Of a DNA stretch of 64,000 nucleotides, positions 1 through 61,339 are shown in pieces (the first letter of the stretch is position 1; each line of letters opens with the position of its first letter). The notes under the pieces were generated by a model, which worked only from the letters and a program-made list of their open reading frames with translations, ran no database searches and was not told the DNA's origin. The DNA is from Euglena gracilis (Eukaryota), in the NCBI GenBank assembly GCA_039621445.1, contig CP154954.1, positions 49,703,847 to 49,767,846 of the forward strand, in the 5' to 3' direction. The translations under genes and the position numbers were made by a program.

Positions 1-3000
1 CCGCCGCCTCGCCCGCCATGGTCGCTGCGGCGGCCCCCACTTGCCGCTCCCGCAGCGCTTGGGCCTCCGCCTGTGCCGGCCGCCCCGTGTCACCGCCGGG
101 GATGGGGGCTCACAAGGCCCCGGGTCGGCCTCCAGGAGGATCGATGCAGCGATGTGGACCACGTTGACTTCGATGGCGGGTTTCCCGGCTGATCCACCGC
201 GCAGGATTCCAAGGGCGTTGACCCAACCTCATCGAGCCAATTCCTGACAACCCGAACACTAAAGCGGCTCAGTGCGAATGGGGTGGTTGGTGCATGACAC
301 CTGGTTGTGGGTGTGGGGGTGGGTGAGTGGGTGTGGGTGTGCGCGTGTGCAGGTGTGGGTGTGCGCGCTTGTTACTCGGTTGGGCCCAACGCCGCAGCAG
401 GCGGCACAGCACGGGGCGGGGCAGGGCAGCCATCTGCGACCGTAGCTCTTGGAGGGCGGCTTCCTTCCCCTCCACCACCAGCAGGGTCCCTCCGGCAAAG
501 GGGAACCCAAACCACCCCCACCAGGGGTTTTTCTTGAGACCGGGGGGAGGGCCTCCCCACCCACCCACCCCCTGGGGAGGCCCCCCGGAGGGGGGGGCTG
601 GGGGACCCACCACTTTCCCCGAAAAAATTGCTAAAATGCTAAAAATAGCACTTTTTTCAAAAATTTTCGGTGCCTTCGGCCCCGAGAAGTGAATGCCCCC
701 CAGGGGGGCCCCACAGAGGCGCTCGGCTGGACCCACCCACACTACCCCCCCCTCCCCCCCAGGGGTTCAAGACTAAAAAACACCCCTGACCCCCACCCAT
801 AGGACGACACCCACACGGACCCGCGGTGGGGGGCCCCGGGCTCCGCCTGGAGGTCCAGCAACTGCTGCTGCTTCGCCTGCAGTTGTCGGCAGGGCGGGAG
901 GGAGGGGGCCGGAAGGGGGCCCACCCGTTAGTGTAGGCTGCCCTCCATAGCCTGGCTGGGTCTCCCGGGCCTTCTGGTCCTCCTGGGACGCCTGCACCTG
1001 CGCCTGCAGTGCTGCGTGCAAACCGGCAGCGGATTTTGTGTTCCGCCTCCGTTCGGGTGGTATTCGGGTGACAAAGCCATCTGTGAATACCCACCATCTC
1101 CTCCTTCTGATGGACTGTACCAAAACTGGTTGTAATGTCACCAAACGTGTTGGCCAGGTAAGAAATCGCGGTGGTCGTTCCATCAAACAGCCATTAAACA
1201 ATATGTGTCAGCTGAAACAATGAGAACTGGTATTCCCATTTTAGCACAAGCATGCCGCCCTGTCTGCATTAGAGCAATGCAAGGCAAAAACGGAAACAAA
1301 GGGCGCTGCTGGGTTGGGCGCGATCTGCTCCTGCAAGGCAGCGGTGTCCCGGGTGTGCGTCTCCACTGCCCTTCGCTCCTCTAACTGCTGCTGTGCCAAA
1401 CCAGTGCCTTGTCACCTTCCTGCCCACTCAAAAAATGTCCCTCAAATCACAACCCAGAGCGGGGGCGGGTTAATGTTGCTGTGCATCGATTTCGGGTCAA
1501 AACCCATCGGGAGCAGGCTTCTTTTTAAGACCCGGGGGGGGGGGAGGGGGGTACCACCCCAGCCACCCAGCCCGGCATAGGAACCCCCAAAATTGGGCCG
1601 TCTGAGGGCATTTCCTAAAGGATTTTCGGCACTTCGCGCCAAAACCCATGCCTGGGCCTCTGGCCCAGGACTCCCCCCGCCCCCCCAGGGCCGGCACTGG
1701 ACCCCCCCCCTATGGGGGGTCTTCTGACTTAAAAAGAAGCTGGTCGGGAGATTTGGGAAAAGCAATTTCGGCAGACTTCCATCGTCACACTCATTCCACC
1801 CGGGCTTAAATATCTCCCCAGCAAGGGCAGACTCGTTGGCCGCATCGGCTGTATTTCAACGCGTGGGGCCACACGTTGCTTCTTTCCCATCAAGGTCTGG
1901 GGCACCGGCAAGGCCGCGGTCTGCCTCTCCCACCGCTCCGCCTCAAGCCGCAGCGCCTCCTCCCGCTCCCGCAGCGCCGCCGCCCGGCCCGCCAGCTCGG
2001 CCCGCTCGGCCTGCAGCGCCGCCTCCCGCGCCGCGACGGCCTGCCGCTGCTGCTCCAGCTCCGCCTCCTGGGGCCGGGCGACGGGGGTCTGTTCCCATGC
2101 CACTCTCGGGGTTCTAAGAAAGGGAATGGGCCCCCGGCCGACCCAGGGGGGGGGGTGCATTGCTGCTTGTGTGGTCGCATTGCCACGGGGCCCAAATAAC
2201 CACCACCCAAAGAACTGCTGTAATGTAATATAATGGAATTGTAAGGTTGAGATTTCTTGTGTGAGCATGAAATACAAGAAACTAAATATGTAATGGGTGG
2301 GTCATTAGACGCATGGCAAATACAACTTCCTGAGAAATGAGCTGATGAAAGTAAATGTGTACCACAAAGTTTTGGAATCACAAACCCGACGTCACAATCA
2401 GAGTATCAGAGTACCAGAACTGTCAAAGCAACACCGAAACCAAAAAAAATACACTTTGAATTTTTGAAAATGGCAGCCTCACACTAGTGCCCCTGCCTGG
2501 GGGGGGGCACTACCCCCCCCAAATAACCTGGGGTCCTTGCTCCTGGCGGGGGCTGAATAACTTGGCGGAGGGAGGGGCAAAAAAGATGGTTCCAGTAACT
2601 TGGCGGGGTCCTTTTTAGGCAAAATTCCTTTACGGCGCTGAAATAAGGGCCCAAATAACCTGGCGGGGGGGGGGGGCAAAAGTTGGTTCCAATAACCTGG
2701 TACCCCGCCAAGTTATTTGGGGGGGGGTTTAGTATGATGGGGGTATGTCAACCCCATACGTCATACAAGTGGGGCTGATGAGCGATTTTGGCCGATTCTC
2801 CCTCCTGTCCCACTTCCACTGGGGGAATTTCGTTTGTTTAATAGGGTCAAAATCAGAATATTTAGGCCAGAAATTTGGATCAAATCCCAAACATTAGGTG
2901 GCAAACGAGGCCAAACCTGTGGCCAAAAAAATCATCAAATTTAGACCAAAATTATAGCCTTAATTCCTAATCCTGAGCCTTTCCCTTATCATGAACCCCA

Positions 3001-6000
3001 TTTTCCCGACTCGGCACTGGGATATCCGCCAGAAAAAGGGGTGAGCTGAGGTGGTTCCCGGGACTGCCGAAACTGGGGCACCGGTGCGCCAGACAACAGG
3101 GCCTGGACCCCGCGTCATACTAATGCCCCTATGAAGTTGCCAAAAAAAAAAAACAATACGAATACGCCCACAATTTGAGTGGCCAAACCGACTTTTTTTC
3201 TGAGTCCCGGTAAACCGAAAACTTCGAAATCCCTGGTGGTCCCTGGCGTTCGCGGCGCACAGTAACAACCCCTCCCCGCCACCGCGGCCCGGGCGGTGGG
3301 GCGCCGCCGTGGGCTCCCCGGCCTCTGCGGCGGGGGTGGCGGCCAGCTTCGCCCGGGCCTCGTCCAGCTCCTGGGAGGGGAGACAGGGGGGCGAGGACAG
3401 CCCCCCCCCCCCGCAGGGAGGTCGGCCTGGCATCCCCGGGATCCATATCCATAGGCGCACATGCATGCATCCACACAATGCACACCTTCCACCCCCCCCA
3501 TACCTAATGAACACTAAAATGACAATCTAGATGGTCCGGATGGGGCATGCTCATTGGTCATAAAAATGACAAACAACGCAATCTGGACACCCCTGCACTT
3601 CCTGTTCATTGGGCGAGGGGTTCATTAGATATGGGGGGCGGGGGTGCATAGCTACACCTTCCGCAGGCGGTCCAGCTCCTCCTCCTTCTGGTTCAGCCGG
3701 TCCTGCTGCGCCTCCGCCTCCGCCTGCTTCATCGCCCAGTCCGAGAGCAGCCGCCCGGCCTCCTCCTTCATCCGCTCCCCGCTCTCCACCGCCTGCCCCG
3801 CCCACGGCGTCGTCCGAACCGCCCAACCCCACCCCGACCAGGCATCTTTTTAAGACTCCCCTGGGGGGGGTCCAGGCTTCGATATAAGGGCAGGTTGGGG
3901 GGGTCACCCCCCCCCCCGGTCCAGGGGGGAGTGGAGGGGGGTGGGGACACCCCACCCCACCTAAACAGTGGCGCGGTCCAGGTGACCGATTTTTGGCCCA
4001 GCGCAAAGCGCCAGGCTGATAATCCCCCCCCCAAACGGCCAAAAATGCCATTGGGCACTTTTTGGGCAAAAATGCAAAAATTTTCGGCGCAAAGCGCTGG
4101 AAGGAAAAAATCCTGATCTTTTTGCGGAGAGGTGGGGGGGGGGGTCCGGACCCCCTCTCCGGTCCAGTAGGAGTGGGGGGACACCCCTCACCACCTAAAC
4201 CCGTATGCCTTCCTTATATGAACCCAGCCTGGCGCGGGACCCCCCCGAGAGGAGGGGCGGGGACCCCCTAAAAATCGGGTCGTCTGAGAGCATTTCCCAA
4301 AAAACTTTCGGTACTTCGTGCCGAAACCCAAACCTGGCCTCCTTCTGGGGACCTCCCCCCCCCCGGGGGTCCGAAGCCGGACCCAGCCCCCCCCCCCCCC
4401 CTGGGGGGACCTTCTGACTAAAAAAGAAGCCTGGTTCTGACCTCATCGGGAGCCGGGCATGGGTGGGGGGCAGCAGCGAGGGACACACTACCACGGGGCC
4501 GTGGCCGGGAACGCTGCACCTCCTCCTGCAGCCCGGCCAGCTCCACTGTGAGGGACTTGATGATCCCTGTGGGGGGGGGGGGACGGCGATGGCGGCGGCC
4601 GGGTCCTGGGGGCGGTCGGGTGATGGGCCGCTGGGACCAGGGGAGCAACCCAAGAGCACTGGGGTAAGGGGTCCCTGGCCACTCACCACACAAACCGGGC
4701 CAGAAAGAAAATAGCGCCGGCCACAAACAGACAAGAAGTCTAATTCAACTAAGGGGGGGGACCAGACCTCGGTCCGCCTCCAGCTGGGACTCCAGTTCGA
4801 AGAGCTTGGCGTGCTGCGTGGTGTGGGTGACCTCCAGCGCCTTCAGCTTGCTACGCAGCACCCGCACCTGGGGTGACTCGCTGGGGAGGAAGGGAGGTGG
4901 AGGGAATGCAGGGGTGGAGGGCAGGGCGACGATTCCCCAAAGGGGGTTGCTCCGTTGAGCTGTCGCGGGGTAAATTTGTCGGCAGGACACACAACAAATA
5001 GCAGTGTGAACGCACTCTGCATGTTCCACAGGCAAATAAAAGAAGCACTTGTGTTTGAATTAAATCTTTATGATCAACTCCAAAAAGGTAAGTGGTGGGC
5101 TTCTTTCATGTTTGCAAAATACATTTTTCCATCTTTCAAATCTCACAATACCACCCACACACACATACTTTTGCACATCACTCCATACAGTGAAACACAT
5201 TGACCAAACATGCACGTGTTTGTATATGTGTTTGTGTGCTCTGCCCTGCACGCTGGGGAAGGAGGCTACTCTGAATCGTCAGCGCTTGCGACCATGGTTG
5301 ACAGGTCCGGGATGAGGCTGCCAAACCACGAGGAGCCTCCTCCAGGACTGACCTAAAAAAAAGATGTCAGCGCGCCTTTAATGAAAACATTCATCATGCG
5401 GAAACTGGGTGCGGCGCACAAATCCAGGTGCACCCCCAGGATATTGATTGTCTGCCCCGGCAGAAACCTGTAATATCCACCTGCACCACAGATTTGCCCA
5501 TCAGAAAAAAATGGAATACTCCCTTTCTTGACGAGCAAACAGACAACACAAAAACACAGCACATGAGGAATGGGTGGGAAGCATTTCCATGAAGGTGAGC
5601 CTCCCCCGCAGCCCCAAACTGAGGTCATCCGTGAGGTTGCCTGGCCACGAAAAGGGAGGCGGACCTCCTCCATGCTGGAGGTGGCCGCGGGGGCGTCCTC
5701 CGCCAGGCGGTCAAACAGCTCATTGAAGTCGCGGCCGCCCTCCCGCTCCCGCTGCAGCTGTGCGCGCAACGAGGCGGGAGGTGGACTGGAGGGTCGCGGG
5801 AAAACACTAGCGCTGCCGGAGGGTTCTGGGGGATTGGGGAAAAAAAACTGAAAAATGCACAAGCAGGTGACCAAGTTGGGCTTTTGAGATGTGGAAATGA
5901 AAGCAGAGACAGACATATGCAAATAGCAGCAAAGACAGAAGATGAAACAGCAATTTGTTTGTGGTGGAAAACATGGATGGGATCACAACACAAGAAACCA

Positions 6001-7554
6001 CTGCGTATGAAACACGGAAATCATGCAGAAAAAAGCAGCAAAATGCACAATTTCGCAAGAAGAGCCAATAGATACCAATAGATTGATATCACTACCCCCC
6101 CCCCCCCCGCTCAAAGGGAGGCTTTGCCAAATAATTTTTGTAGCCGACGAATTTGAAAATAAAAAACTGAAAAACAGTCCCATAAAGCAAGGGTCGACAG
6201 GGTCATTTTGGCCAGCGCTTCGCACAAAAAGCAGGGGTGAACCTCCCTTCTGGGAACACACACTCAGTTGGCATGGGGGGGGGATTGGGGGCAAGGCAGA
6301 ACTGGAAGGGCTGGTGGGGGGGGGGGTCGAACCCCCCACCCACTACAACATTTTCACCAATTTTGGGGAAACGGGGATTTTGGCCAGAAAAAAAATTTGA
6401 TTTTTTTTTGAAAAATGAACCCAAAATACATGCTTTTTTTGATGGAAAACCACATTTTTTGAGATTTTTTTTTCACAAAGAAATCTCAAAAATTGCAGGT
6501 TTAAAAACTGGTAGTTTTTAGGAGGGGGGTGAAAAAAACGAACCTCAAAAAGATTGGACCAAATTTTGGCACAGTCAAATTTTAGTGACATTTTTTGGAT
6601 TCTTTTGGAAATTTTTTTTGGATTTTCAATGGCATTCTTCTGCCTCAAAAACCTCTCAAAACTTTGAGAAAAATTTGAAATTTTGGAAAATGTGAAAAAC
6701 TGAGGTTTTGGGGGGTTTTGGGGGGGATTTCTGATATGGGTCCCAAATGGGTCCAAAATACACCCGGCGCCGAAGATGCCGGGAAAACTTTTTGGGGTCT
6801 GAAAATTGGTGCCAGGCTTCTGCTTAAGGACCCTAGGAGGGTTACTGGCTAGCCAATCGGCTAGACACTGGAAAAAATTGGACTAGCTAGACCCCCCCTC
6901 CCCCTGGGGGGGGGGGGTCCGGGGGTCCCCCCAACTGGAAAATTTTTTCCCTCCGGCGCTGCGCGCCGAGGTGGAAATGAGGTTTTTAATAGGGGTTTGG
7001 CTGATTTTGTTCCAAAAATTCCCAAAATGGCCAAAAACGGGCATTTTTGGCCATTTTTGGGGGGCCCCAAAAAAATTTCCATGGCAAAGCGCCGGTCACT
7101 GGAAAAAAAATTACACTAGCTAGCCCTGCTAGCAGACCCCCCCCCAGGCCCACTAGCCAAATTTGGACTAGCTGCAGTCCAGCCCCCCCCCCCCCAAATT
7201 CGTTCTTCGACTTTTTGATTTTCGATCCCATTGGCCTGGCTTTGGTGGCTAGTCCGGCCTCTGGCCGGGCTGGACCAAGTTTATTTCACTCGACTCCCTG
7301 GGGGGGGCTCCCAGCCCCAATTTGGGCTGCTGGCTGCATTGAGCTGCTGGCTGGCTGGAACCCCCCCCCGGGGGGGGGGATGGGGTCCCCTCCGGCTTAG
7401 AAATCCCTGATCAAGGCCAACAAAAGCATTGTCCTACGCCAAAACATCGAATGTCCGCTGGCACCTCATGGGGGTCGGCCCGCACCTGGACTTCGTCCTT
7501 CTCCAACTGCAGGTGCTTCTGGGCGAAGCCCCGGACGGCCCCGAAGAGGCTCAT
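1..7554 (-). CDS. Multi-exon coiled-coil protein of unknown function, 3' end outside the window
   Basis: ATG 7554 (MSLFGAVRGFAQKHLQLEKDEVQ|GT). E/Q/A/L/R-rich GC3-rich exons at about 5770-5665, 5352-5280, 4867-4768, 4566-4512, 3810-3658, 3371-3280, 2067-1900, 1395-1320, 1022-958, 884-841, 475-425, 80-1; mixed GT-AG and stem-type junctions; boundaries approximate. Confidence 0.7.
522..788. mobile_element. MITE, hAT-like (8-bp TSD)
   Basis: CAGGGGTTTTT...AAAAAACACCCCTG; perfect TSD ACCCCCAC (514-521, 789-796). Confidence 0.88.
1514..1742. mobile_element. MITE, CAGGCTTCTTTTTAAG family
   Basis: TIR CAGGCTTCTTTTTAAG/CTTAAAAAGAAGCTG; flanks ATCGGGAG/GTCGGGAG (7/8). Confidence 0.82.
3839..4433. 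mobile_element. Composite MITE, CAGGC(A/T)TCTTTTT family with an internal CAGGCTTCGATATAAG-family piece
   Basis: Termini CAGGCATCTTTTTAAG and AAAAAGAAGCCTG; TSD poorly conserved. Confidence 0.6.
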
Positions 7555-7906
7555 GGGGGGCCGGCACGGCGCAGCGCGGCGACAGGCGTGGGAGGGGCAC
7601 CCGCAAGGATGGCACAAATGTGGGGCCGCAACTGAAGAGGGAAGGGCCGGGCGGATGCCACGCCTGGGCGACGGGGCACTGCCCGGGAAGAGGAAGAGCT
7701 GCAAATGCGTGGCGAACTGGGGAATTTGGACTGCTTTTGAACTGGAAACCCAACATTCCTAAATAAGCTCCGGAAACAGGCAGAGCTGAATAAATGTGTC
7801 GGAAGCCCACGTCGGAAACGGTGCTATCCGAAAAACGTTCAACGCTGGTTGTTGTGATGAACTCAGTTCAATGAAAACTTCACTGTGACAGGTGGTCGCC
7901 ACGACA

Positions 7907-8276
<370 letters not shown>

Positions 8277-8835
8277 CATACCATTGCTTAGTGACCCCCT
8301 GGGGGGGTCACTTTCCACTCCGAAAAAAACCAGTCAGTCACTTTTTCCGATAAAACCAGTCAGTCACTTTTCCCGATAAAACCAGTCAGTCACTGTACCC
8401 CCTCCCCCTGGGGGGGGGGATTGGCAACTCTTCAGGAGGCAATGAAAATTTGCCAAAAAGTCTCAAAAAATACAAAAAATTTCCGGCACCTTCGGCGCCA
8501 GGCCAGCCACTTTTGCATTTTCGGGCCTACCCACCCCGGGGGGGGGGGGGCTTTTGGCCAAAAAACCAGTCAGTCGCTCTGAAAAAACCAGTCAGTCACC
8601 CCCCGGGGGGGGGGGGGTATAGGCTCGAGCTTGAACGTTCGAGCTCAAGGCTCCTCTGATGGTAACCCCCCAGGGTCCCAGAATCTAGCAAAAAAAGATC
8701 GAGGATTGAGGATTTGTTGGGCTTTATCCAGGAGGTGCTTGTGTTTGACTGGAAGAACAATTAAACAAAGGCAAATGGAGGGCACTGGTTAGGTGTTAAA
8801 CAATGGTATCACACACCCCACCCACCCACACCCAC

Positions 8836-11820
8836 TTAGGCGGCCGAATTCGCACTTAAGCTTTTTTCCTTTTGATGCGCGCAATTGCGCAAATTTACGA
8901 TTTTTTTTGTAACCCCTGGGACCCTGTACCCTGACACCCAGAACACGATTTAAGAACTGTTACACCCCTGTATTGGAGGGGATTAACTCCCAGTAGTTTG
9001 GCATGCATGCTGCAGACCGAGTGACACGAAGAGGGCTGATGGTGAGACTGGTGCTGTTGTACATCAAACTGGAGAGAGGCATACACCCCTTGTAACGATA
9101 CTTGGAAACGGTGCTGAAGTGCTGGCTAAACTGGCTTGGACACTGCCGCCACCGGTGAGAACACACGGAGTCTCACTAGATAACAAAACCACAGACAGAC
9201 AGACTACGTGAGCCAGTCATCACGCAACTGACGTGTGTTTATGGGCGCAATTGCGCAAATAAAAACAAATGTGTTTGATGCGCGCATTTGCGCAAATAAA
9301 ACGTAAAACGATGATGTTAAAATGACGTGTTGGTGGGCGCAAATGCGCGCACCAACACATTTGGTGGTGTGCGCATTTGCGCAAATGCGCGCACCAACAC
9401 GTTTATGTTTACTTGCGCAAATGCGCCCACAAACATGTACTTTTACTTTCTATGTTAAAACACACCAATGAGGACCATGACCCTACGAGGTTTAAAAACG
9501 TGATGGGCGTGTTGGTGCGCGCAGTTGCGCAAATAAACACCATTACGTTGGTGCGCGCATTTGCGCAAATGCGCAAATAAAACACTTTATACACCGTTTC
9601 AAAATGATGTTTGTAGGAGCCATAGAGCACACAAACAAAGTTGTGTTTACTTGCGCAAATGCGCGCATCAACACACATCAGTTGTGTGATAACATCTCCT
9701 CCTCTGTGACAGCTGGCGAACGCAACTCCTCACGTCAACCAATGATTTGCGCCACAATTACATGCTGATGAAATTTGTGGTGAGAGGTGGTGTGGAGTGT
9801 TCACTGGAACACGGCATGTGACTGGCCAAAATTTGCCTGTCTCACGTGTGTACATTTGCACTGCTGTTACCCGGCCCGATCGGCCTGTTGTTTTGGCGTC
9901 ATCTGTTTGGCAGTTAAACGTCATGAATTGATGACATGCAAACGACCTGTGACTGTTGGACACCTTTTGTGTAACAGGACTGCGTTACAAGAAGACAAAA
10001 TTTGGCACCCGAAATACCCGGGACGTGTCGGGCCGGAGTCCGTTTTACGGTTTTTTCTGCCATTTTTCCCTTGAAAAATGTAAAAAACACCGGTTTTTGT
10101 GCATAATTTAGGGGGAGTGGGTCCCACCACTTTGATGCACGTAATCCAGTGGTAAAGCTTCAACACTTCCTGGCACCCAAAGTAACGGGTGCTTGAGGGC
10201 TACCTCTCTCCAGCTGCCGGTTGCCATGCACTGGCACCAAGTCGTCCCCCCAGCCTTACACCCCGGTTGCGGGGTATAACGCGGTCGCTGTGGTGGGTGT
10301 CGTTGCACCGGGGAGGTCGATGCTGGCCTGTTGGGTGCTGAAGCATCAGCAGCTGATGGGGCTGCAGCAGCAGAGCCCAGGCCGCAGGTCAGCGGTAGGG
10401 CCCTTGGGACCCAAAAATTGGTGCCGGTGGAGGTGTACCGTTACTGGGTGGCTATGAACCCACCTTCAAGAGATCCTATGTCTCCGTCTTTTGTAGGACC
10501 TGTCAATGGTAAAAAAAAAACGGCACCCTAACACCATATACCGGAGGGACGGTGTAGTCATTTGGGTTGAACCCATTCAGAAACCACTAAGGGTGGCTGT
10601 AGGAGCGCCAAAGGAAGTCACTTATTACTCCCCCATTGGTGGTTTATTTGCGCATTTGCGCGCATCACGTTGTTTTATTTGCGCAAATGCGCAAATAAAC
10701 CAGATGTAAAATGAACAATTTACATCTGTTTTATTTGCGCATTTGCGCCCACAAACAACGTGATGCGCGCAAATGCGCAAGTAAACCACTTCCGCTGTCG
10801 GTGTTTGACGGCTGTGTTTCTGTCACACCGTTCTTATTTGCGTTTTATGGGGGCAAATGCGCGCACCAAACACAAAACATGTTTATGCGCGCATTTGCGC
10901 AAATGCGCGCATAAACATGTTTTGTGTTTGGTGCGCGCATTTGCGCCCATAAGCTTGCGTGGTGACAAACAGTGTGACAAATCCACCAACTGGATGGCCT
11001 GTAGGTCCGTGCCGTCACGGCCTCTTTGTCACACCGTTTATCAACGGCGTCAGATCGTGGGTGCCAAAGCCCAGCACTAGAAGGGCAAAATTGTGTTTAT
11101 GCGCGCAATTGCGCGCATCAAACGCAAACACGTTTGATGCGCGCATTTGCGCGCATCAAACGCAATTTTCTTCGCAGGTTCTTTGCCACACAACTGGTTG
11201 TGTGGGTCCTGGGTATAAGCCGGGTGGGAGACACCCATCCCCTTTATTCCCTTCATTCCCTGCGGACCCCATTTCTTCCCCATCTGCGCTTCCCTTGCCC
11301 AACACCCCGCACTTACCTTCCTTCCCCTGTGTCCCTTCTCGCCGGCTTGGTCACACCACACCCACACCCCCCGGCACTTCCTGCCCGCGCTTTAACAAAC
11401 AGCCCACAAACACCACACCCAGGCGCCGCCAGCAACGCAGTCCGGCAAACACCCAGGACTCACACAGCCGGCAGCTCGGACACACCCGAGGACACAGCCA
11501 CAAAAAGCAACAGGGGCAGTAAAGGTCCCGTTCCTAAGGTGCTTTTTTGCGTTTTTTTCAGGGTGGGCCGGCAGGGTCCCGGGGGTTTGGGCCCACAAAG
11601 TCCTTCCCGACACCCCCAAAAAACACCATTTTTCGCCAAAGTCCCGGGGGTCTCCCAGCCAAAATCAGAATTTCGATCGTTTTTTGCACTCTCTTGTTGC
11701 CGTGTTTTCAAACCCCCCTGACCTTCACAGCCGAAACAGAGCACAATCAAAAAAATCGTGAATTTGCGCAAATGCGTGCATCAAACGAAAAAAAGCTTAA
11801 GTGCGAATTAGGCCGCCTAA
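8836..11820. mobile_element. ~3-kb non-autonomous TIR transposon with many GCGCATTTGCGC/GCGCAAAT motifs
   Basis: ~30-bp TIR TAGGCGGCCGAATTCGCACTTAAGCTTTT / AAAAGCTTAAGTGCGAATTAGGCCGCCTA; flanks ACACCCAC/AGACCCAC; no recognisable transposase. Confidence 0.8.
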
Positions 11821-12395: not shown

Positions 12396-12767
12396 CAGGC
12401 TTTGATATGAAGACAGGAGGGGGAGGGTGGGTCGGACCCCCCCTCTGGTCCAGCACGGGGGGGGGGGACCCGACCTAACCAGTGGCACGGTCTGGGTGAC
12501 TGACTTTGCGCCGGGCCGAAAATCTTTGACACCCCAAAACAGCAAAAAATGCCATTTTGGGCAAAAATTTGTCAAAAATGCAAAAAAAAAAAATGTTCGG
12601 CGCCAAGCGCCGGAAAGAACGATTTGAGCTTTTTGGGGGAGGGGCCCAGGTACCCCCGGGGTGGGTCCGGATCCCCCTTGGCAGGTGGGCTGGGGGTGGT
12701 CTGGACCCCCCCTCCGGTTTGGGGGGACCCAACTAAACCCCGTACAGCCTTCTTATATTGAACCCAG
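12396..12767. mobile_element. MITE, CAGG(G/C)TT(C/T)GATAT family
   Basis: CAGGCTTTGATATGA...CTTATATTGAACCCAG; flanks TCCCCAAC/TCCTCAAC (7/8). Confidence 0.78.
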
Positions 12768-14023
12768 TCCTCAACCTTATTTCTCGGTTTCCTGTGGGGG
12801 GTTTGAGCCCAAAGCCACTTTTCTCCAAATGTCCTTGATCAATGGCCACTTTCACCCAAATGTCTTCGATGAAAGCCACTTTGACGCAAATGATACTTCC
12901 GAAGGATTCCAATTCAATTTTCAGCCCAAACCCTCCCAAAGGGGCCAAAAGGGGGTCGAGGGGCAGGTTGATGCTGACCCCCAAAGAAACCTCTGGCTGG
13001 CATAATTGTTTTTTCTGTTTCGGACTGCCCAGATTTTTCTGGAAGGTTCGTTCCGAAAAAAATTCTCAGTTCATTTCTCAAACACATAGAGCCATTTCAC
13101 AGAGCGGGTGGGTGGGTGGGTGGATTTGTCCTCTGCCCCGGGGGCTGGGAACGGGAAGGCCTGGTGGGGGGGGTCGACCTCCCCCAGCCGAGAGGTGGGG
13201 GGGGGGTGGGTCGACCCCCCCACCACAGCATTTTCACCGGGAAAACGGGGAAACGGGGAAAACAGCATTTTCATTTCGGGAAAACGAGGATTTTGGCCAG
13301 AAAAAAAAATTGAATTTTTTTGAAAAATGAACCCAAAACACATGATTCCTTGAAGGAAAACCACATTTTTTTTTCACAGAAAATCTCAAAAAAATCAGGG
13401 TTAAAAATTCGTAGGAGGGGGGTGAAAAAAAACGAAGGTCAAAAAAAGTGGACCAAATTTTGGCATAATCAAATTTTACTGACAGTTTTTTCTCTTTGAA
13501 ATTTTTTGGACTTTCAATGGCATTTTTTTTGCTTCAAAAACCTGGTTTTTGGGGGGACCCCCTATATGGGTCCCCCCAAAATGGGTCAAAAAAAACACCC
13601 GGCGCCGAAGGTGCCGGAAAAAAAAATTTCAGGTCCAAAAATTGGTGCTCCCGGAAAAACGGAAAAAGGGGGGGGGGGGGGGGGTGGTCGACCCCCCCCC
13701 CACCATGCAGGGGGTGGGGGGTGGTCGACCCCCCCACCCACCACCCTGGCTGTTCGGCACCCTGGCTGCGGGGTCGTGCATGCGTGGGCATTCGCAACAA
13801 GGGGCATGGGAAAAAGCCCCCCCAGGGTCATCAAATAAGTCAATCTATGGTTGTGAGAACCCCTTGTCATTTGGGTCTGAAAAGATATGAGGGCCCTGAA
13901 AATGGGTTTTGGCTGCAGTGGGGTATCTGCTGGTGGTTTTGGTTGTGTGCCCGCTGCAGCCCCGAATCTGGGTTTCCTTCTGGAGGGGTGGAGGGGGGCC
14001 AACACAGGCATGGGCATTCTGAC

Positions 14024-14376
14024 CATACAATTTTTTACCGACCCCTTGGGGGGAGGGGGGGTCACTCCACTTTTTGAAAAACCAGTCAGTCACTTTTTTT
14101 TGGGAAGCCAGTCAGTCACTACCCCACCCCCCCCCCCGGGGGGTCGGCCACCCAGGAAAACCAGCCACTTTCCAGCCACTTAAGGCCATTTTAGGCCAAA
14201 AAATTTTTCCCGGCGCCTTCGGCGCCGGGGTCACTCAAGCCACTTTTGCCCACCCCTGGCCGACCCCCCCCCCCAGGGGGGGGAGGGGGTCTGGGCCCAA
14301 AACCAGTCAGTCACTCTGAAAAAACCAGTCAGTCACCCACCCGGGAGGGGGGGGACAGTGCTTAAAAAATTGTCTG
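14024..14376. mobile_element. MITE, CATACAATT family (AACCAGTCAGTCAC internal motif)
   Basis: CATACAATTTTTTA...TAAAAAATTGTCTG; perfect TSD ATTCTGAC. Confidence 0.88.
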
Positions 14377-15446
14377 ATTCTGACATAAATACTTTTCCCC
14401 AGAAAACAGAGGAAAACTCCCCTGAGGGAACCACCCCAGGCAACCCCCCTGGGGGGGGGGCACCCACCCCGCTACCCTACTGGGAAAAAACTTTGGAATT
14501 TTGTAAAAAAGACAAAAGCAGCAAAAACTGATCACCAGAATCCTTCGACCATTAGCCATCCACCCAAAACGATTTGGTTCTCGCCCCTGTTCGATCCTTG
14601 ACCTGGCATTGAGGGCTGTTCTCGGTAAACGATGCGAGCCTGACCTGAGAGCCTCTGTAATGTGAATAACCTGTATGAAGATGGGAAACAGCCAGGGGTG
14701 GTCTTATTGGCAGGCTTGTTGGTCCGTGACGATTACAAAGAAAACTTTGCGGACGGTGCAACAAACAAGGAATAACTAAGAGCTGTGGCCATTCAGCTCT
14801 AACACTCATGATAACCGACAACCTGGGGGACGGGGTCGGCTGTTCATTTTTTGAACGTTATGTCCCTTCGATCAACCCATCAACCCATCTGGGTCCTCTA
14901 TAGCGGCTTCGGGTTCCTTCCCAGGGGTAAATCGATGTCAAAATGCTCATCACGAGAGTTCTGGTTTGCAATATGCTGAATTTGACCCACCGCTGGGTCT
15001 CGGTGTGCCCTGGAGTGCCTGGGCAGGGAAGCACACAACGTGGGGGGGGGGGCGGGGGTCGGTGCCCGACTGGCTGTGAGTTGAAATCGACCAAAATGAC
15101 CTTTTCTTTGGGCTTCGGGCACCTTCAAGGCCGGAGTGTCTTGGCGGAGAGCTCAGGCTGGGCACACTCCAAGGCACCCGAGAAAACCAGAATCCGACGC
15201 TGACGCAAGAGCTGCCTGGGCTGTGGAGAGGGCTAGGGAGACTGGCGCCTTTCGGGCGTGAAAAGGAGGCGGGATAAGAATCTTCCGCTGGCAGAGTGGC
15301 GTGAGGCAAACAGAGGGTTGGGTGGGGACGCACCTCGCATACGGTTTTGAGTCACCTCCCCTCCCCTCCCAGTGACAGCACTGGAAGGAAACTCGAGCTG
15401 CCCTCCGCACAGGGCCACAAGGCAGCGGTATATAACGCCCAGGGGC

Positions 15447-39500: not shown

Positions 39501-39518
39501 GGCGGATGCCAGCATGTG

Positions 39519-39549
<31 letters not shown>

Positions 39550-46392: not shown

Positions 46393-46603
46393 TGTATGTA
46401 TGCATGTATGTATATATGTATGTATGTGTGTATGTATGTATGCATGCATGCATATGCGAGCATGCATGCATGCATGCATGCATGTATGTATGTATGTATG
46501 TATGTATGTATGTATGTATGTATGTATGTATGTATGCATGTATGCATGCATGCATGTATGTATGTATGTATGTATGTATGTATGTATGTATGTCTGTATG
46601 TAT
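46393..46603. repeat. (TATG/CATG)n tetranucleotide microsatellite
   Basis: Direct inspection. Confidence 0.95.
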
Positions 46604-47458: not shown

Positions 47459-47908
47459 CATACATCTCTCTAAGGACCCCGGGGGGGGGTTGCTGGGCTA
47501 GGGCTAGAAATTTGGGCTGGCTAGCCCGCCCCCCCCCCCCCCCGGGGGGGGCTGGACCCCGGCTGGACCCGAACCGGGGCGAGCTGGACTGAAATCGGAA
47601 AAATGCCCAAAAATGACCTGCAGAACACAGTTTTGAAAAAATGATGCATCTGAAACCCCCCAAAAATGCCCCAAACGCCCCCCAAACCCCATTTTTGGCC
47701 ACTTTTGAACACAGTTTTTCAAAAAATTTCGGCGCTTTGCGCCAAAAAATTTTGGGCTGGACCCCCAAAAAGGGGGCTGGCTAGCTGGGCTAGCAGCCCC
47801 CCCCCCCCCCGGGGGGGTGCTGCTGCGGCTGGGCTGGGCCCAAATCGGGGCTGGCTGCAGCCGCCCCCCCCCCCCGGAAGGGTTCGCAAAACCTTAGAGA
47901 GATGTATG
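47459..47908. mobile_element. MITE with CAT...ATG termini
   Basis: Perfect 17-bp TIR CATACATCTCTCTAAGG; perfect TSD TTACCAAC. Confidence 0.9.
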
Positions 47909-48866: not shown

Positions 48867-49214
48867 CATACAATTTTTTACCGACCCCCCCGGGGGGGGG
48901 GAGGGGGTCACTCCACTATTTTAAAAACCAGTCAGTCACTCATTTTCAAAAAAACCAGCCAGTCACTACCCCCCGGGGGGGGGTCGGCCACTCAGAAAAA
49001 CGGCCACTTTCCAGTCACTTTAGGCAATTTTAGGCCAAAAAATTTTTCCGCCTCCTTCGGCGGCAGGGTCACTCAAGCCACTTTTGCCCACTCTTGGCCG
49101 CCCCCCACCAGGGGGGGGGAGGGGGTTTGGGCCAAAAACCAGTCAGTCACTCTGAAAACCAGTCACCCACCCCCCAGGGGGGGGGGGGTCGGCAAGTGCT
49201 TAAAAAATTGACTG
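48867..49214. mobile_element. MITE, CATACAATT family
   Basis: Same termini; flanks GTAACATC/GTAGCATC (7/8); a truncated relative lies at about 8277-8620. Confidence 0.85.
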
Positions 49215-52034: not shown

Positions 52035-52406
52035 CAGGGTTCGATATAAGGACAGGTGGGGGGGTGGTCCAGACCCCCCCCCCTGCGGGCCAGGGGGGGG
52101 GGGCGGCGGACCCCCCCCACCTAAACAGTGGTCTGGGTGACCGAAAATTTTTGCCCCCCCAAAACGACCAAAAGTGCCATTTTTGGGTACTTTTTGGGCA
52201 AAAATGTGTCAAAAATGCAAAAAAATTTTCGGCGCGAAGCGCCGGAGGAAAAAATTGACCCTTTTTGGGGGGGGTCCCGGGTACCCCCCGAGGGTTGGTC
52301 CGGACCCCCCTGGCAGGTGGGGGGGTCCGGACCCCCCCGGCGGGCCAGGGGGGGGGGGGACACCCCCCCACCTAAACCATGTACACCCTCCTTATATCAA
52401 ACCCTG
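52035..52406. mobile_element. MITE, same family, inserted in the end of a TA-class element
   Basis: TIR CAGGGTTCGATATAAG/CTTATATCAAACCCTG (15/16); perfect TSD GGGGGGAT. Confidence 0.88.
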
Positions 52407-54155: not shown

Positions 54156-55982
54156 TTAGGAGGCCGGATTTGCACTTACCCCCCCCTATGTCCAATGACC
54201 AATAACCTCTGTCCTCTGACCGGGGGGGGTGGTCATTGGACATAGGGTAGTGACCAAAAAGGTGTCCTCTGACCGGGGGGGGTGTGGTCATTGGACATGG
54301 GGTCAAAAGAAAGTTGGTGGGTGCCCGGGTCCCTACCCACCCAAAAATGCCTAAATTTTCCCTTCCGGCGCTTCGCGCCGAAAATTTTGGGCAATTTTGA
54401 CAAATTTTGTCCAAAAAGTGTGAAAAATGGCATTTTGGCCAAATTTTTGGCCAATTTTTGGGCAAAATTTTTCGTCCCGGCGCTTCATGCCGGGACCAAA
54501 AATTTGGTCAAACCTCCGAAAAGGTGTCCTCTGACCGGGGGGGGTGGTCATTGGACATAGGGGGTCGTTGGACATAGGGGGGGGGTAAGGGTTTTTTCTA
54601 TTGGAATGGGCACATTTGCGCAAATTCACAATTTTTACGAAACACCTAGGACCCTGTAGCCTGACACAGGGAAAACAATTTACAAACTGCTGCAACCCTC
54701 TATTAGAGGGTTGTAACACCAAGTGGCTGGGTACGCATGTTGCTTACCGAGTGACGCGACGAGGGGCGAGGCAATGATTTTCTGAATTGTCTCGCCAAGA
54801 TCAAAAGGAAATGCCCCATAAAGCCTCCATTGGCTCCCCAAAAGCAACCAAAATGACCTAAAATGGCTTGCAACAACCAAAAATTACCCAAAAACGCCAA
54901 CAAAATCCACAAAAGATAGTGAAAAATGACCCAAAATTGCCAAAAGGGCGCAAAATGGCCAAAATTCCATAAAAAATGCTCAGATTGACCCAAATTAGCC
55001 CAATATTTGCCCAATCAGTGACAAATAGCCCCCAAATTAGCAAAAACTGATCCATAATGGCCAAAATGGGTGTAAATCTGGAGATTTGTGAGAAAATTAT
55101 CCAAAAATGGGTTTAGTTCTTCAAAATATACAAAAAAAATGCCAGCATCGCCCAGCAACACCCTGCATCGCCCAGCATCGCCCAGCGTCGGAACCCCACC
55201 TCTGGTCTCCAAAAATCCAGCATCACCCAGCATCACCCAGCATCACCCTGGAACGCCCAGCATCATCACAGGTGCTTGTTCCAGAGGCAAAGCTGCCGAA
55301 TTCCTTCATCCATTCCCCTTCGGTTGGCCAACCACATGCAAGTCGGCCCTGGTCGGCCCTGGTCGGAACCCCCACCTACGGGTGTCCTGAAAACCATAGT
55401 CGGCCCTGGTCGGCCCTGGTCGGCCCTGGTCGGCCCTGGTCGGCCATAGGTGCCTGCTTGTGGACCCAGTTTCTTCCCCTGCGCATCATTTGCCAAACAC
55501 CATCAACTTACCTTTCTCACCCTATGCCCTTCCCTCCCACTTGGTCAGACCACACCCACAAACCCTGGCATTTCCTCCACGCGCTTTGCCAAATTCCGCA
55601 GAACACCACACCGACGTGCCGCAAACGAAGCAGTCCAGCAAAGACCCAGGACGCACACCAGCCGGCAGCTCGGGCTTAATCCGGGAAAAAGCCGAAAAAA
55701 GCCGCAAGAAGGGCAGTAAAGGTCCCATTCCTTTGCCTCTTTTTTTTTTGCACTCCTGAGGGGGTCCCGGGGGTTTCGACGTGCGGAGCCTGTTTCTGAC
55801 CCCCCCCCCAAAACACCATTTTTGGCCAAAATCCCAGAGTCACACCACCAAAAACAGAATTTTGCTCATTTTTTGCACTCTCTTGTCAAGATGTTATCAA
55901 ATCCACACAACCAAAATAAAAAAAAATCGCCAATCTGCGCAAACCAACACGAAAAAGCTTAAATGCGAATCTGGCGGCCTGA
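54156..55982. mobile_element. Diverged second copy of the 8836-11820 family with two nested insertions
   Basis: TTAGGAGGCCGGATTTGCACTTA[insert]AGG.. matches 8836-8940; 55520-55980 resembles 11300-11820. Confidence 0.72.
54179..54585. mobile_element. TA-flanked MITE (Tc1/mariner-like)
   Basis: C(n)TATGTCCAA...TTGGACATAG(n) TIRs; TA on both sides; interrupts the CACTTAAG of the host TIR. Confidence 0.85.
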
Positions 55983-56563: not shown

Positions 56564-59500
56564 TCAGCAGGACACGAGGTTGAGGTCGTGGAAGATGTCG
56601 ATGAGCACGCTGTCCAGCCCCAGCACCGACTGGAGCAGCCGCCGCGCCGTGGAGTACTGGGGAACGAACTCCCCCGCAGGGCCCCGCTGCGCGTCCAGCC
56701 CCCCCCCCCCCTTCCCCCCCGTGCCCCCCGCCTGTGCCGGCACAGGACGGGCGACTTTATGCGGCGCTGCGGGAGAAGGGGGTGCTCGGCACTCTGCACC
56801 CAGTGCCAAACACCTTGTGGGCTATGGCTTGCCTGGTGAGCTACGGGGTACATGACTGCCCGTAACCGGCACTCATGCGACCTTTCACGACAAAGAAGCC
56901 CGGCACAGGTGTCCCGCATTCGTGTTGCGGGGAGCTGCGGGGCAGGGGATGGTCACGTATTGGGCCAGTGCGAGGATTGCTGCGGTTCCTTTTAGTTGGG
57001 CTCGTCCTGAAGCTTCCCTTAAAAACCCTGGGGGTTCTGCAGGTTCTGGTTGTGCAAATATGCAAGGAAAGGCAAAAATATAGACCAAAAAAATGATGAA
57101 AATGGTGAAAAATATTGACAAAAATTTGGTCTCTGGGAAATTTTGGGCAAAATGAGGAATTTTTCAAAGTTGTAAAAAAAAATGTAAAAAAAAATGTAAA
57201 AAAATCCATCAGAAATCGAAAAATTCAGAGAAAAAATTTATCCCTTTTACTCTCTTGCGCGATTTACATGATTTCAAAAAATGGATTCACGTGATTTTAC
57301 GTGGCAAAACCATGACGGCCCCAAAATGGCCAAACAATGACCTAAAATTACTTAAATGGACCAAAATGGCCTGAAATGCCACATAATATATAATATATAT
57401 TTGCTCATAACAACCAAACTAAGCAACGTTGACCCAAAAGGGTACAAAGGGGCGAAACATGAGAGCAGTCACCCAGCATCGCCCAGCGTTGGAGAGCTTG
57501 TCCTCTGGGGGGGGTCTGCTTCTTCCGAGCTAAAAAGAAGTTTCCTGGTTTTCAACTAGGATCCAAGGATGGGGATAGGATGGGGATCATCGGGGGGGGG
57601 GGGTTGAAAAAGACAGGCTGATGAAGCAAACAGCTGGCTTCAGCGATGCCCTGCTCTTCCACATCTTTCCCAGTGACCTCCTTGCTTGAGGGCTGACAAC
57701 AGCGCCATACTCCAGAGTTCATGGGGAGAGGGGATTTGGGCAGGCACATCAACCCCAAAGAGCGATTCTGGGTTTAAACCCCGGGATGATAGATTCACTT
57801 CGTGACCCGCGGGGGGGGGGGGCACTTTTTCCCGGGCCCAAACCCACCCACTCACTTTTTTCGAAAACCGCCCACCCACCCTGCCCGGGGGGGGGGGGGG
57901 GAAGGGGTCAGCCACCCCCACTGAAAATTCAGCCAAAATCGGTCAAAAAAAAGCCGAAAAAATTCCCAGCCCGACCTTCAGCTGAGCAAAAACCTGACCC
58001 ATGGCGCACCCCACCCAGGGAGGGGGGTCCCAGGGCCACCCACCCACTCTCGAAACCCCCCACAGGTGAAAAATAAATCAATACTTGGGGACTCGCAGGA
58101 CTTACGAGGGGCTGGAGTGGAGTGGGATGGAATGGAGTGGCGGGTAAACTGCCATTTCAACACGAAACCCATTAAAATGCGGTTCCAAAAAATGCAAAAT
58201 GGGGCAAACACTTGTGCAAGACGAAGCCCCCCACCCCTGATTTAGCCGATGGCAGGATCAAAAACCTCACTTTTGCTAAAACTCCAAAATGGGAACAAAG
58301 GACGAATGGGGCCCAGAAACCTGAAATGCAGAAATGGGAGCCACTAACCCCCGCCCAATGCTTGTTTCATGTTTCCACAACTGGCGACGCTTCCCCACAG
58401 TGTTGGTGGGGAGATGCACAAAAATTTGGACCATGTGCAATTATTTTGCCTCTGACTGTGTCATTTTCAGCCGCCAAAGAAAACCCCCATTGCTTTTAAT
58501 TTTGTCCCCCCAAGCCAGTTTGTAATTTTGGAAGAAAACTCTATTCATTCTCCCCTCCGCCAAAATCAAGCGTCCCGATAACCCCTACTGAAACCCATTT
58601 TCTTTTTAGCACAACTTATCCAACACAATTGTCGAGGGGGTTTTTGGACTTGGAGGTGGACGCTGTACGCCAGCATTCCTCCTCCTCCTCCTCTGCCAGC
58701 GTTTTCCGCATCGACTCTGCAAACTTCTCAAACTCTGCGGTGAGGTCCGGGGACGCTGCTGGCATGACGTGCTGGGGGGCGACAGGCATCGGCAGCACCA
58801 CGGTGGATTCCTCCGCTCCCTCAGCTGGTGTTGTCGACAGGCGGTTGCGGTCAGTTTTGGAGGACAGCTTCCAGGAGCGAGGGGGGGGATGCAACATGAA
58901 CTCACACACAAACAAAAAACGCGACAAAAAATGCAAAAAGTGAAGAAAAAAACAACACAAAAAGCAAAAAAAAACAACGCAAATTGCATGAAATATCCTT
59001 CAGGAGCCCCCGAGATGTAATACACTTTTCAACTGGATTTTGTTGCCCAAAACAAATGTAAAAATGACAAAAAAAATTGACATAATTTTCGGTCTCGGGG
59101 GGGGAAATCGGGGCCAAAACGAGGAATTATTTCAGAGTTAAAAAAAATTCCAGGACAAATCCAAAAATCGACAGAAAAAAACACGCGAATTTTTCCAAAA
59201 TCAAAAAAAAACACAAAAAAACACAAAAAAAACAATGCATTTGTGTTTCCCTCCCTGGCAGGAGGCTACTGCTGCAGGTGGGGGGATGGGCACCCAACAA
59301 CCTGCCCATCCCCTGGGAGATGGAGGAGCAGGCTTCTGTCTGAAACCATCAAGCCCTCCAACGTGGGACTTGGGGGGGGGTGCCCCCACCCCAAAATTGA
59401 AGGCATTTTCCAAAGAATTCTCCAGCGCTTCGCGCGGCAATCCCGGCATGCCCTGGCATCCCGGAAGCAACCGCGTGGCTGCTCCGGCGTCGGGGATGGT

Positions 59501-61339
59501 GATGACCGGCCCGTCCGGCCGGGACACCACGATGGGGCCAGGGCCGGCCGACCCACCACCCCCCGAGCCCGAGGGGACCGGAGGGGCGGCCCTGGGCGGG
59601 ATGCAGCTTGTTGCACTTGGCGCCGAACTTGCACTGGCCGGTCAAGGCCCACACCTCGCAGATCTCCCGCCCGGCCTGCGCCTCCACCGCCTCCGACAGC
59701 TGCTGGTAGCAGGGTTTTTTTTTTAAGACCGGGACGGGGCGTCCACGACTAAAAAAACCCCTGGCTGGTACACTGTGAGGTCCGGGTGGACGAAGCGGCA
59801 TTGGGACGACTGCGGCCGGTGCATGACGCACTTTACTCCCTGCGTTGGGATTTGTCAGCCGAATAATTGAGATGAAACCCCGCAAAAAAAAAACCTTAAA
59901 AACTGCATTTTGGGCATTTTTTTTTTTGACCCCCGGGGTCCGCTGAAATAAAGTTGGAGCCCCAGGCTGGACAGAAAAATTTTTTTTCGGCACTTCGTTA
60001 ATTTTTTTTATTTTAACTTTTTTTTTATAATTTTTAACTTTTACTTTTAATTTTTTTTAAAAAGGTAAAAATAGCAATTTTTTCAAAAATTGGCAAAGCG
60101 GAGAAAAATTTTCGGTCCTGCCCGGCTTTGCTGGGCTGGCCCCAACTTTATTTCAGTGGACCCCCGGGAGGTGCAGCCTGGCTGGGAGGTGCTGCCTGAA
60201 CCCCTCCCCAGGGGTTGGGTCCTGCGGCGTGAGAAAACCACTGCTGGAGGGGTGGTATAAAATTTTCAGTGACGAAAGAAGACTTCCATAAACAAAATAC
60301 GCGCTGGAAAAAGGATCGGCGAATGATTTCGTGCGACCAACACCCGCTGGGGAGTGACCCATGCCATGCCAGCCTCAGGGCGCTCTCGCGTGCACTTCCC
60401 CTTCAGGTAATCCGGCCCATACAACGGCCTGGCATCGTGATGGCGACGGCGGACCAGCGCAGCACTATCTGGGGACTAAAGATCCTTTGCTCTGACACTT
60501 TGGCATGTCAGGCAAACCCACCCAAAACCCAGCAGAGCGACCTCAGCTCAGTTTCCTGCCAGGTTTTGGAATCAGGGAATTTCTTAAGCACCAGCTGGCC
60601 AGCTGTGATGACTGGACCCCCCAGGGGTGGGGGTACGGGGGGGGGGGGGGGCCCACCTCCCCCCCCCCCCCCGGCCCTTGGCCTGGTAAATGGTTCAAGG
60701 TAAAACCAGAAAACTGACTTAGGGGAACCAAATATACATGCCAAGAACCTTGGCAGCCATGTGGAAAAGGACAAAGGCCAACTTTAGGGGGACCAAAATT
60801 TGTATGTAAAGATCAGGGGGGGGGGCAAGAGCCAGGGGGGTATTGGTTAATACTGCTGGACCCCCCCGGGGGTCTGCAGCCCGGCTAGGAGCTACTGGCT
60901 GGAAAAAAAATACCCCCCATCGGGTTAGGGTGGAATGGCTGCTGTTTGGAATGGCTTGGTTCAAAGCTGTTGCCGGAGGGAGTGGTTGGAACCCCTCCAG
61001 CCAAGCCAATCTAGGGGGTGGAGGTGGGAACACTTAAACAATGCGTGAACGAACTGAGCGGTTTTCTGCCGGGGGGGGGGACCAAAAAATCTTCCCCAAA
61101 CAGCTGCAAAAAAATGCGATTTAAGATGACAAAAGTTGTGGATAAAATGCTTTAAGAAGTTTCTGGCATGAAAGCGCGACTGGCGAGACTGGTCCCAGTA
61201 TCAATTCTGGGTCTCACACAGCGGCCTTGCTGCAGGCCGTGGTATGGGTGAGGCAGACGTTCAGTCCAGCATCGGCTTTGGCCTTGCGACCTCGCTTCGT
61301 CACCGTGGCAGTGGGGGCGTTGGCAGTGGTGGGGGCCAT
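56564..61339 (-). CDS. Tandem CCCH zinc-finger protein, multi-exon; 3' exons only partly resolved
   Basis: Join 61339-61250, 60412-~60382, ~59804-59767, 59704-59598, 59533-.. gives MAPTT..NVCLDYLKGKCTRE(x)QCRFVHPDLTVYQQLSEAVEAQAGREICEVWALTGQCKFGAKCNKLHPIVVSRPDG (two CCCH fingers). Probable later exons about 58870-58650 (DLTAEFEKFAESMRKTLAEEE) and about 56690-56564 (..DIFHDLNLVSC*, GC3-rich). Confidence 0.75.
59710..59763. mobile_element. 54-bp mini-MITE forming a non-conventional intron (59705-59766)
   Basis: Ends CAGGGTTTTTTTTTAAGAC...GACTAAAAAAACCCCTG; flanks GCTGGTAG/GCTGGTAC (7/8 TSD); termini match elements 522-788 and 22563-22849. Confidence 0.88.

Follow-up and report, generated by a model that had tools for sequence, protein, structure and literature searches.

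The stretch of Euglena gracilis DNA analyzed here (the window, 64,000 nt in length, with a GC content of 48-60% across it) carries a minus-strand gene for NAD(P) transhydrogenase, in which the PntA and PntB parts are fused, together with a set of inverted-repeat transposable elements flanked by 8-bp direct repeats. The gene contains 30 introns, 19 of which have GT-AG borders, and 11 are nonconventional (counted from the RNA joints listed and from protein mapping). Most of the nonconventional introns can be placed with pairing terminal triplets that lie 3 nt from one splice junction and 5 nt from the other, and the sum of these two spacers equals the length of the duplication that flanks the elements. 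We consider that a substantial share of the nonconventional introns probably originated from 8-bp-duplicating transposons, with the 3+5 register matched to the length of the duplication, and assign to this reading a probability of roughly 60%.

The translated RNA-joined transcript corresponds to NAD(P) transhydrogenase, beta part (Pfam PNTB), and one exon is 99% identical to EG_transcript_2419, a transcript-derived protein of 931 amino acids (eukprot). The identity assigns the window, which is nuclear DNA, to E. gracilis or a very near relative. RNA of the same species label, comprising two raw read runs and two contig runs, was aligned to positions 13001-33000, and 15 of 339 RNA joints were listed; the joint-based counts given here are among the joints listed. 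Each of these was covered by one contig per contig run and, over both sets of raw reads together, by 6-31 read starts. Eight of the joints read CT..AC on the plus strand, equivalent to GT-AG for a minus-strand gene, and the other seven were not GT-AG. Mapping of the 931-aa protein placed exons from 45740, the position of the start codon, down to 17140, and the RNA joints extend the gene to ~14700, with the stop codon located in exon 15411-15605. The 17 junctions obtained by protein mapping repeated two of the RNA joints and added 11 GT-AG and four nonconventional introns. Gene finding based on open reading frames (ORFs) was unsuited to the window, the exons being too short.

The preliminary description of this DNA, made from the sequence alone, had reported at least 15 elements with CAG or CAT ends and 8-bp flanking repeats, ten of them with perfect repeats (the elements that begin at 522, 14024, 16463, 17459, 22563, 25164, 25372, 29729, 47459 and 52035). 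All ten were verified: the 8-bp flanking repeats are perfect in each case, and the inverted ends pair at 10-12 of their first 12 bases. Six of them start with CAG and four with CAT, and nine end with CTG and one with ATG. In an unbiased scan, all pairs located 40-3000 bp apart with at least 10 of 12 end bases paired were collected. The resulting 32,288 inverted-end candidates were reduced to 6,105 by filtering for low-complexity ends, two tandem/palindromic arrays and palindromic flanks. Exact 8-bp flanks were found in 15 of these, compared with ~0.09 expected from random 8-mers, and ten of the 15 were the elements already listed. G/C runs make for a noisy flank-length profile, the numbers of candidates with exact flanks of 7, 8 and 9 bp being 7, 15 and 7, respectively. 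In total, 17 elements with at least 6/8 flank identity were counted (perfect in 12, 7/8 in three and 6/8 in two), distributed among at least 4-5 sequence families. The families of these MITEs (miniature transposable elements with inverted repeats) in the window include ones with ends of the CAGGGGTT, CATACAATT, CAGGGTTYGATATAAG and CAAGCACC types. The original observation is thereby confirmed as real and as lying far beyond chance.

Terminal inverted repeats of hAT transposons are short and begin with (C/T)A(G/A). The ends of the elements in the window start with CAG, CAT or CAA, in keeping with this pattern. Target-site statistics were derived from the 14 elements with good flanks, which upon strand-symmetrization provide 28 readings. 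In eight of the 14 the duplication has T as its second base, and in nine it has A as its seventh (pooled p = 2.6e-5 versus window composition). The sites therefore match nTnnnnAn, which the available text of PMC10368747 gives as the target preference of Hermes, a hAT transposase. The two-strand consensus is GTYnnRAC: of the 28 strand readings, 22 have a purine at position 6 (p = 0.002) and 14 have C at position 8 (p = 0.007); a pyrimidine at position 5, in 16 of 28, was not significant. In terms of duplication length, end sequence and target preference, the elements are hAT-like, in line with the label that they had received earlier on.

For the nonconventional introns of euglenids, a splicing code of the form N3-CDG...CH'G-N5-6|R has been reported, in which the 5' spacer is strictly 3 nt and the 3' spacer is best at 5 nt. 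In E. gracilis knock-ins, extension of the 3' spacer by 1 nt cut transcript levels by 30-40% and extension by 3 nt abolished them, and the code covers 61.2% of the nonconventional introns of E. agilis (all from the available text of PMC12501133). When each nonconventional intron of the transhydrogenase gene was placed at every position that the data permit, pairing triplets at +4..+6 and -8..-6 could be accommodated in eight of the 11. The triplet pairs were CAG/CTG in four introns, and CGG/CCG, CTG/CAG, CAT/ATG and CAC/TTG in one each. The strict code N3-CDG...CH'G-N5 is present in six of the 11 introns, and the code together with the exon purine in five. A relaxed CA...TG form occurs in two more (CAT/ATG at 20068-22178 and CAC/TTG at 19948-20028), and three introns (15320-15410, 17209-18044 and 43677-45611) fit neither form. 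Two natural introns with off-code triplets are spliced, as seen from the RNA joints. The intron at 24625-24900 is free of positional ambiguity, and the 3/5 register is therefore seen directly. The preliminary description had placed the stem of most such introns between +4 and -6, with CAG, CGG or CAT ends. This holds for eight of the 11 introns, with 24625-24900 as the unambiguous case, and fails for the other three.

One of the introns consists of an element and one copy of its duplication. This 81-nt intron (19945-20025) comprises a 73-bp inverted-repeat element at 19953-20025 plus one 8-bp copy, CTGCTGAC on the gene strand. The ends of the element, CAAGCACCCATG and CACGCATTCATG, are paired in 9 of 12 bases, with a CA start, a TG end and perfect 8-bp flanks. 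Support for the intron amounts to 9 read starts in one raw run, 8 in the other and a single contig in each of the contig runs. Its two 8-mers agree at every position (8/8) when placed in the predicted register. Among the 11 nonconventional introns, direct repeats of 8 and 7 nt were detected at the junctions of two, and repeats of 0-1 nt at those of the other nine. In the 19 GT-AG introns the repeats do not exceed 5 nt, a length to be expected from the AG|GT consensus.

The junctions of nonconventional introns follow published rules, namely a purine at the 5' end of both the intron and the exon downstream, plus C as the exon's third base (available text of PMC4770533). In our model, target position 6 becomes both intron +1 and downstream exon +1, and target position 8 becomes exon +3. 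The elements' target consensus agrees with these rules at both positions, having a purine at 6 and C at 8. An intron recently gained in gapC of one E. agilis strain, with direct repeats of eight nucleotides (available text of PMC4770533), also speaks for the link.

Taken together, the observed elements, their duplications and target preference, the register of the introns and the one intron made up of an element plus one copy support, but do not prove, an origin of the odd introns by transposon insertion. In such a scheme, non-autonomous cut-and-paste MITEs of the hAT type, with CA(G/T) inverted ends, would duplicate 8 bp at GTYnnRAC-type sites, and the splice would cut beyond both inverted ends, at a distance of 3 nt from one and of 5 nt from the other. 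Since the 3-nt and 5-nt spacers sum to 8 nt, splicing would take out the element plus one 8-bp copy of the target-site duplication (TSD), and the pre-insertion mRNA would be restored. The earlier arithmetic, by which 3+5 equals one TSD copy, is sound in this respect, as the published code removes an element plus 8 nt. A substantial share of the nonconventional introns most likely began as exonic insertions of 8-bp-duplicating transposons. We infer that insertions could be spliced immediately and in either orientation, and that the match between spacers and duplication could be causal.

A further-reaching possibility, which we advance only tentatively, is that nonconventional splicing may itself be a form of RNA-level excision tuned to a single superfamily of transposons. 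The cuts would be set, 3 and 5 nt outside, by the stem that inverted ends of the hAT type form, the sum corresponding to the 8-bp stagger of the transposase, and any exonic insertion with C-D-G ends would be neutral on landing. The weak junction consensus would then be the target preference GTYnnRAC read twice, rather than a splicing signal. If true, such a system would explain why nonconventional introns constitute ~70% of the introns of E. agilis.

Several observations weigh against a transposon origin. None of the ten listed elements is itself an intron: six of them lie in the mapped gene, five within GT-AG introns and one within a larger nonconventional intron. Of all nine elements in the gene, seven are located in GT-AG introns (16463, 22563, 25164, 25372, 29729, 30716 and 39779), the one at 17459 is inside a larger nonconventional intron, and the 73-bp element is the sole one that forms an intron. 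The listed in-gene elements are passengers within larger introns. Moreover, CAG...CTG ends are carried by just six of 14 elements, and the strict code including the exon purine is found in only nine of 28 element orientations, so that the earlier proposal of restoration in either orientation does not hold in general. Splicing is lost, according to published work, when a single base of CAG or CTG is substituted. In the code-fitting placement of the 3' untranslated region (UTR) intron at 14782-15219, the 7-nt repeat is out of the TSD register; an alternative placement has a CAG start and 7/8 flanks, and the data fit either. The minimum-energy fold of the 81-nt intron leaves its ends unpaired, with a stability like that of shuffles (z = +0.57). 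The 8-mer comparison that the preliminary description had proposed gave TSD-register identities of 4, 8, 2, 2, 5, 4, 1 and 1 in the eight placeable introns of this gene, with a mean of 3.4 versus 2.4 in a mismatched-pair control (56 pairs). The direction is thus as predicted, but the excess comes from one intron and is slight apart from it. A BLAST search of the 11 nonconventional introns against the 64-kb window, in itself a weak test, yielded no family-level match to the elements, the matches being nested elements and microsatellites only; an Rfam search likewise gave no match. Pfam scans of 39 different ORFs, which cover the window in part, revealed no transposase domain, only PNTB and one CCCH finger, and the elements are therefore regarded as non-autonomous. 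The intron evidence, finally, comes from one gene within 64 kb. The transposon interpretation of the preliminary description is supported in part, by the geometry, the hAT-like elements, one intron and the target consensus, and is tempered by the listed elements not being introns, by code-fitting ends in fewer than half of the elements and by a duplication signal that depends, in this gene, on a single intron.

We consider it unlikely, though it is the strongest of the alternatives, that the resemblance is a coincidence. The MITEs and the nonconventional introns would then be unrelated, both needing terminal hairpins, and the sum 3+5=8 would be accidental, the direct repeats at the junctions being products of microhomology or double-strand-break repair instead of TSDs. 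Such repair was invoked by Milanowski et al. (2016) for a recently gained gapC intron of one E. agilis strain, the eight-nucleotide direct repeats of which are longer than those of the other introns in that study (available text of PMC4770533). The short repeats of nine of the 11 nonconventional introns, the lack of an intron that matches an element family in the 64-kb BLAST search and the out-of-register repeat at 14782-15219 are likewise what a coincidence would give. It accounts poorly, however, for the 81-nt intron, whose CA...TG ends (9/12) abut an 8-bp repeat in the manner of a MITE, for the CAG/CTG terminal triplets common to elements and introns, and for a target consensus that fits junction rules derived independently from introns.

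Somewhat less probable still is selection acting as a filter. The 3/5 splicing would be older and fixed by its enzyme and, of the many types of transposon inserting into exons, only 8-bp-duplicating insertions with C-D-G ends would survive there, so that the match would reflect selection on insertions and not a system shaped by transposons. The occurrence of nonconventional introns in diplonemids (PMC12621601; available text of PMC6221363) suggests old machinery, and the loss of the duplication signal from most nonconventional introns of the transhydrogenase gene suggests age; code-fitting ends are also present in only some of the element families. The filter, on the other hand, predicts the same sequences as a transposon origin, from which the window does not separate it, and the mirroring of the target preference by the purine and C rules is simpler if the junctions are target sites. 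Least likely is that the elements belong to Merlin, P or a similar 8-bp duplicator rather than to hAT: Merlin with 8-bp duplications is documented in E. gracilis (PMC8101967), and neither a hAT transposase in the scanned ORFs nor a report of hAT from Euglena in the literature searched (many subscription papers being outside the search) was found, but Merlin ends are GG in all described families, compared with CA here, and the nTnnnnAn target pattern is that of hAT.

Table 1. Elements, nonconventional introns and gene in the window (ellipses mark internal sequence; fractions give matching flank positions).
Feature	Position	Strand	Characteristics
MITE	522-788	.	CAGGGGTT... family, CAG...CTG, perfect TSD ACCCCCAC
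MITE	1514-1742	.	CAGGCTTCTTTTTA... ends, TSD ATCGGGAG/GTCGGGAG (7/8)
Element	8277-8810		flanks 6/8, CA-repeat context
MITE	12396-12767	.	CAG start, CAG end, TSD TCCCCAAC/TCCTCAAC (7/8), kin of 52035
MITE	14024-14376	.	CATACAATT... family, CAT...CTG, perfect TSD ATTCTGAC; downstream of last mapped transhydrogenase exon
MITE	16463-16948	.	CAG...CTG, 16-bp perfect inverted ends, perfect TSD GTTCCAAG; within GT-AG intron 16325-17065
MITE	17459-17782	.	CAT...CTG, perfect TSD GGTGTGCT; within larger nonconventional intron 17209-18044
MITE	22563-22849	.	CAG...CTG, perfect TSD TTCCGGGC; within GT-AG intron 22206-23982
2137-bp element	25164-27300	.	CAG...CTG, perfect TSD GTCCCAAA; within GT-AG intron 24935-27437
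1238-bp element	25372-26609	.	nested in 25164-27300; 21-bp perfect inverted ends CAGACATTCATTTAGTGTGGT, perfect TSD GCGCTGCA
MITE	29729-30042	.	CATACAATT... family, perfect TSD GGTGGGAT; within GT-AG intron 28793-30503
1967-bp element	30716-32682	.	CAAGCACC...TTG ends (CAA start), perfect TSD CTCATGGG; most of GT-AG intron 30628-32795
MITE	39779-40072	.	CAA...CTG, TSD GGCGAAAC/AACGAAAC (6/8); within GT-AG intron 39501-40562
MITE	47459-47908	.	CAT...ATG, 17-bp inverted ends, perfect TSD TTACCAAC
MITE	48867-49214	.	CATACAATT... family, TSD GTAACATC/GTAGCATC (7/8)
MITE	52035-52406	.	CAG...CTG, perfect TSD GGGGGGAT; related copies 3873-4225, 12396-12767
438-nt nonconventional intron, 3' UTR	14782-15226	-	7-nt direct repeat; code-fitting placement 14789-15226
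81-nt nonconventional intron	19945-20033	-	joint 19944>20026, placement slides over 8 nt
276-nt nonconventional intron	24625-24900	-	GAC-CAG...CTG-CCCGC|A, no slide
176-nt nonconventional intron	27532-27707	-	GCT-CAG...CTG-GCGGG|G, 9-bp terminal stem, 5/8 TSD-register identity
NAD(P) transhydrogenase gene, fused PntA/PntB	14700-45740	-	RNA joints and protein mapping

Among the elements of Table 1, the nested 1238-bp element carries subterminal 32-nt tandem repeats at 25402-25533 and 26420-26573, which are mutually inverted and resemble those of transposase-binding regions. Hundreds of RNA reads have loose poly-G or poly-C ends at G/C runs in MITEs (13668-13687, 22601-22622 and 25720); these probably represent a sequencing or mapping artefact, and the depth at such sites is inflated. 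The five exact-flank candidates that do not correspond to listed elements have G- or C-run flanks and were set aside, uncounted, as unconvincing. An outer element at 29676-30070, with 7/8 flanks and without family support, is possibly a chance occurrence, since ~2.3 such cases are expected among the 6,105 candidates. Between the 73-bp element of the intron and the outer one (likewise 73 bp) at 29676-30070, relatedness was no greater than that of shuffles. Inverted-end pairs of the form GGTC(G/A)TTGGACAT occur at 54231-54536, 61748-62051 and 61800-62051, where the flanks are G-rich 8-mers, and may represent either another, GG-ended transposon family (perhaps Merlin-like) or an artefact caused by runs of G. 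At 9270-11165, palindromic units based on GCGCAAATGCGCGCA are densely arrayed, with arms of up to 54 nt and 98% complementarity. Long (AC)n and (TGTA)n microsatellites are located at 7904-8276, 30375-30502 and 46393-46603, the second of which lies directly 3' of the GT of a conventional intron.

Within the transhydrogenase gene, the minus-strand exon 43514-43676 is one G short in each of two G runs relative to the transcript-derived protein and passes through three reading frames, which may be due to indel errors in the assembly or to a damaged allele. The 3' UTR holds two nonconventional introns (14782-15219 and 15320-15410), both downstream of the stop codon; the second, 91 nt in length, has GT at its start and lacks AG at its end. 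Elsewhere in the window, a scan for codon usage indicated further minus-strand gene candidates at ~390-7550 and 56570-59710. The first of these (392-7554) is composed of short ORFs with codon usage like that of the transhydrogenase exons and with coiled-coil-like peptides. No homologues were found for the candidate exons tried, one from 392-7554 and one (56570-56743) from the second candidate. The minus-strand ORF 59349-60056 contains a CCCH zinc finger (Pfam E = 2.4e-5) and, together with candidate exons 56570-56743 and 58679-58879, may constitute a second gene.

In the literature, inverted repeats led to the proposal, in 2014, that the nonconventional introns derive from MITEs, in a paper noting that euglenid transposable elements were as yet unidentified (available text of PMC3935182). 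Inverted ends at +4..+6 and -8..-6, together with junction repeats called "TSD-like", are described in a 2024 review, the available text of which mentions neither "8 bp" nor "hAT" (PMC11282704). In the 2025 code paper, MITE-like elements are given as a possible source of the introns, whose origin is called unclear. The paper records short direct repeats at 84.4% of introns, which were left out of motif discovery, and the words "hAT", "TSD" and "duplication" are absent from its available text (PMC12501133). The remark in the preliminary description that a transposon origin had already been proposed in general terms agrees with the available text of PMC3935182 and PMC12501133. Earlier publications thus cover the origin from MITEs, repeats resembling TSDs and the 8-nt repeat of a newly acquired intron. 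The explicit link between 3+5, 8 and the hAT duplication was not found in the literature searched, outside which lay many subscription papers and also supplements that may hold a distribution of repeat lengths. We regard it as a plausible unifying idea and as a variation on the theme of transposon-derived introns.

The link addresses two questions, where the nonconventional introns of euglenids come from and why their spacers measure 3 and 5 nt. The equality of spacer sum and duplication length offers a concrete, falsifiable explanation that names a candidate superfamily. Slidable introns, set aside from motif discovery, would be recast as the youngest and most informative ones, and existing annotation, with ~466,000 nonconventional introns in E. 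agilis, is usable for a genome-wide test. If true, the link would describe an introner system without dependence on GT-AG, in which the geometry of RNA processing in the host is matched to a transposase.

In comparison with known systems, the nonconventional introns of this gene, eight of 11 of which fit, share non-GT-AG borders, pairing triplets, 3-nt and 5-nt spacers and the exon purine with the nonconventional introns of other euglenid studies, as far as the available text of these extends (Milanowski et al. 2014, 2016; Nomura et al. 2025, PMC12501133). Those papers name a general MITE origin, without reference in their available text to an 8-bp duplication, to hAT or to actual families. 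With the hAT MITEs related to Ac/Ds, hobo and Hermes, the elements have in common an 8-bp TSD, short CA(G) inverted ends and the nTnnnnAn preference; they differ in that several families here have mismatched third bases (CAT...CTG), and a transposase partner was not found in the scanned ORFs. The Merlin transposons of E. gracilis, which encode an IS1595-type transposase, share the 8-bp duplication and the species (PMC8101967). In contrast to their GG ends, all 17 elements of the window begin with CA.

A further parallel is provided by introner elements, for which an intron composed of a transposon plus one copy of its duplication is established in other lineages, Amoebophrya included (available text of PMC11282704). 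The introners of Micromonas, Amoebophrya, Polarella and Fritillaria are similarly non-autonomous inverted-end transposons that serve as introns, with splice sites derived partly from the duplication, according to the same text. A multi-copy intron family, as known from introners, was not found here by BLAST within the 64 kb. Introners, again from the available text of PMC11282704, generate duplications of 3-5 nt and are removed by the spliceosome, sometimes in modified form. In Euglena, by contrast, the duplication is 8 bp, and removal is thought to be non-spliceosomal and positioned by the stem of the inverted ends.

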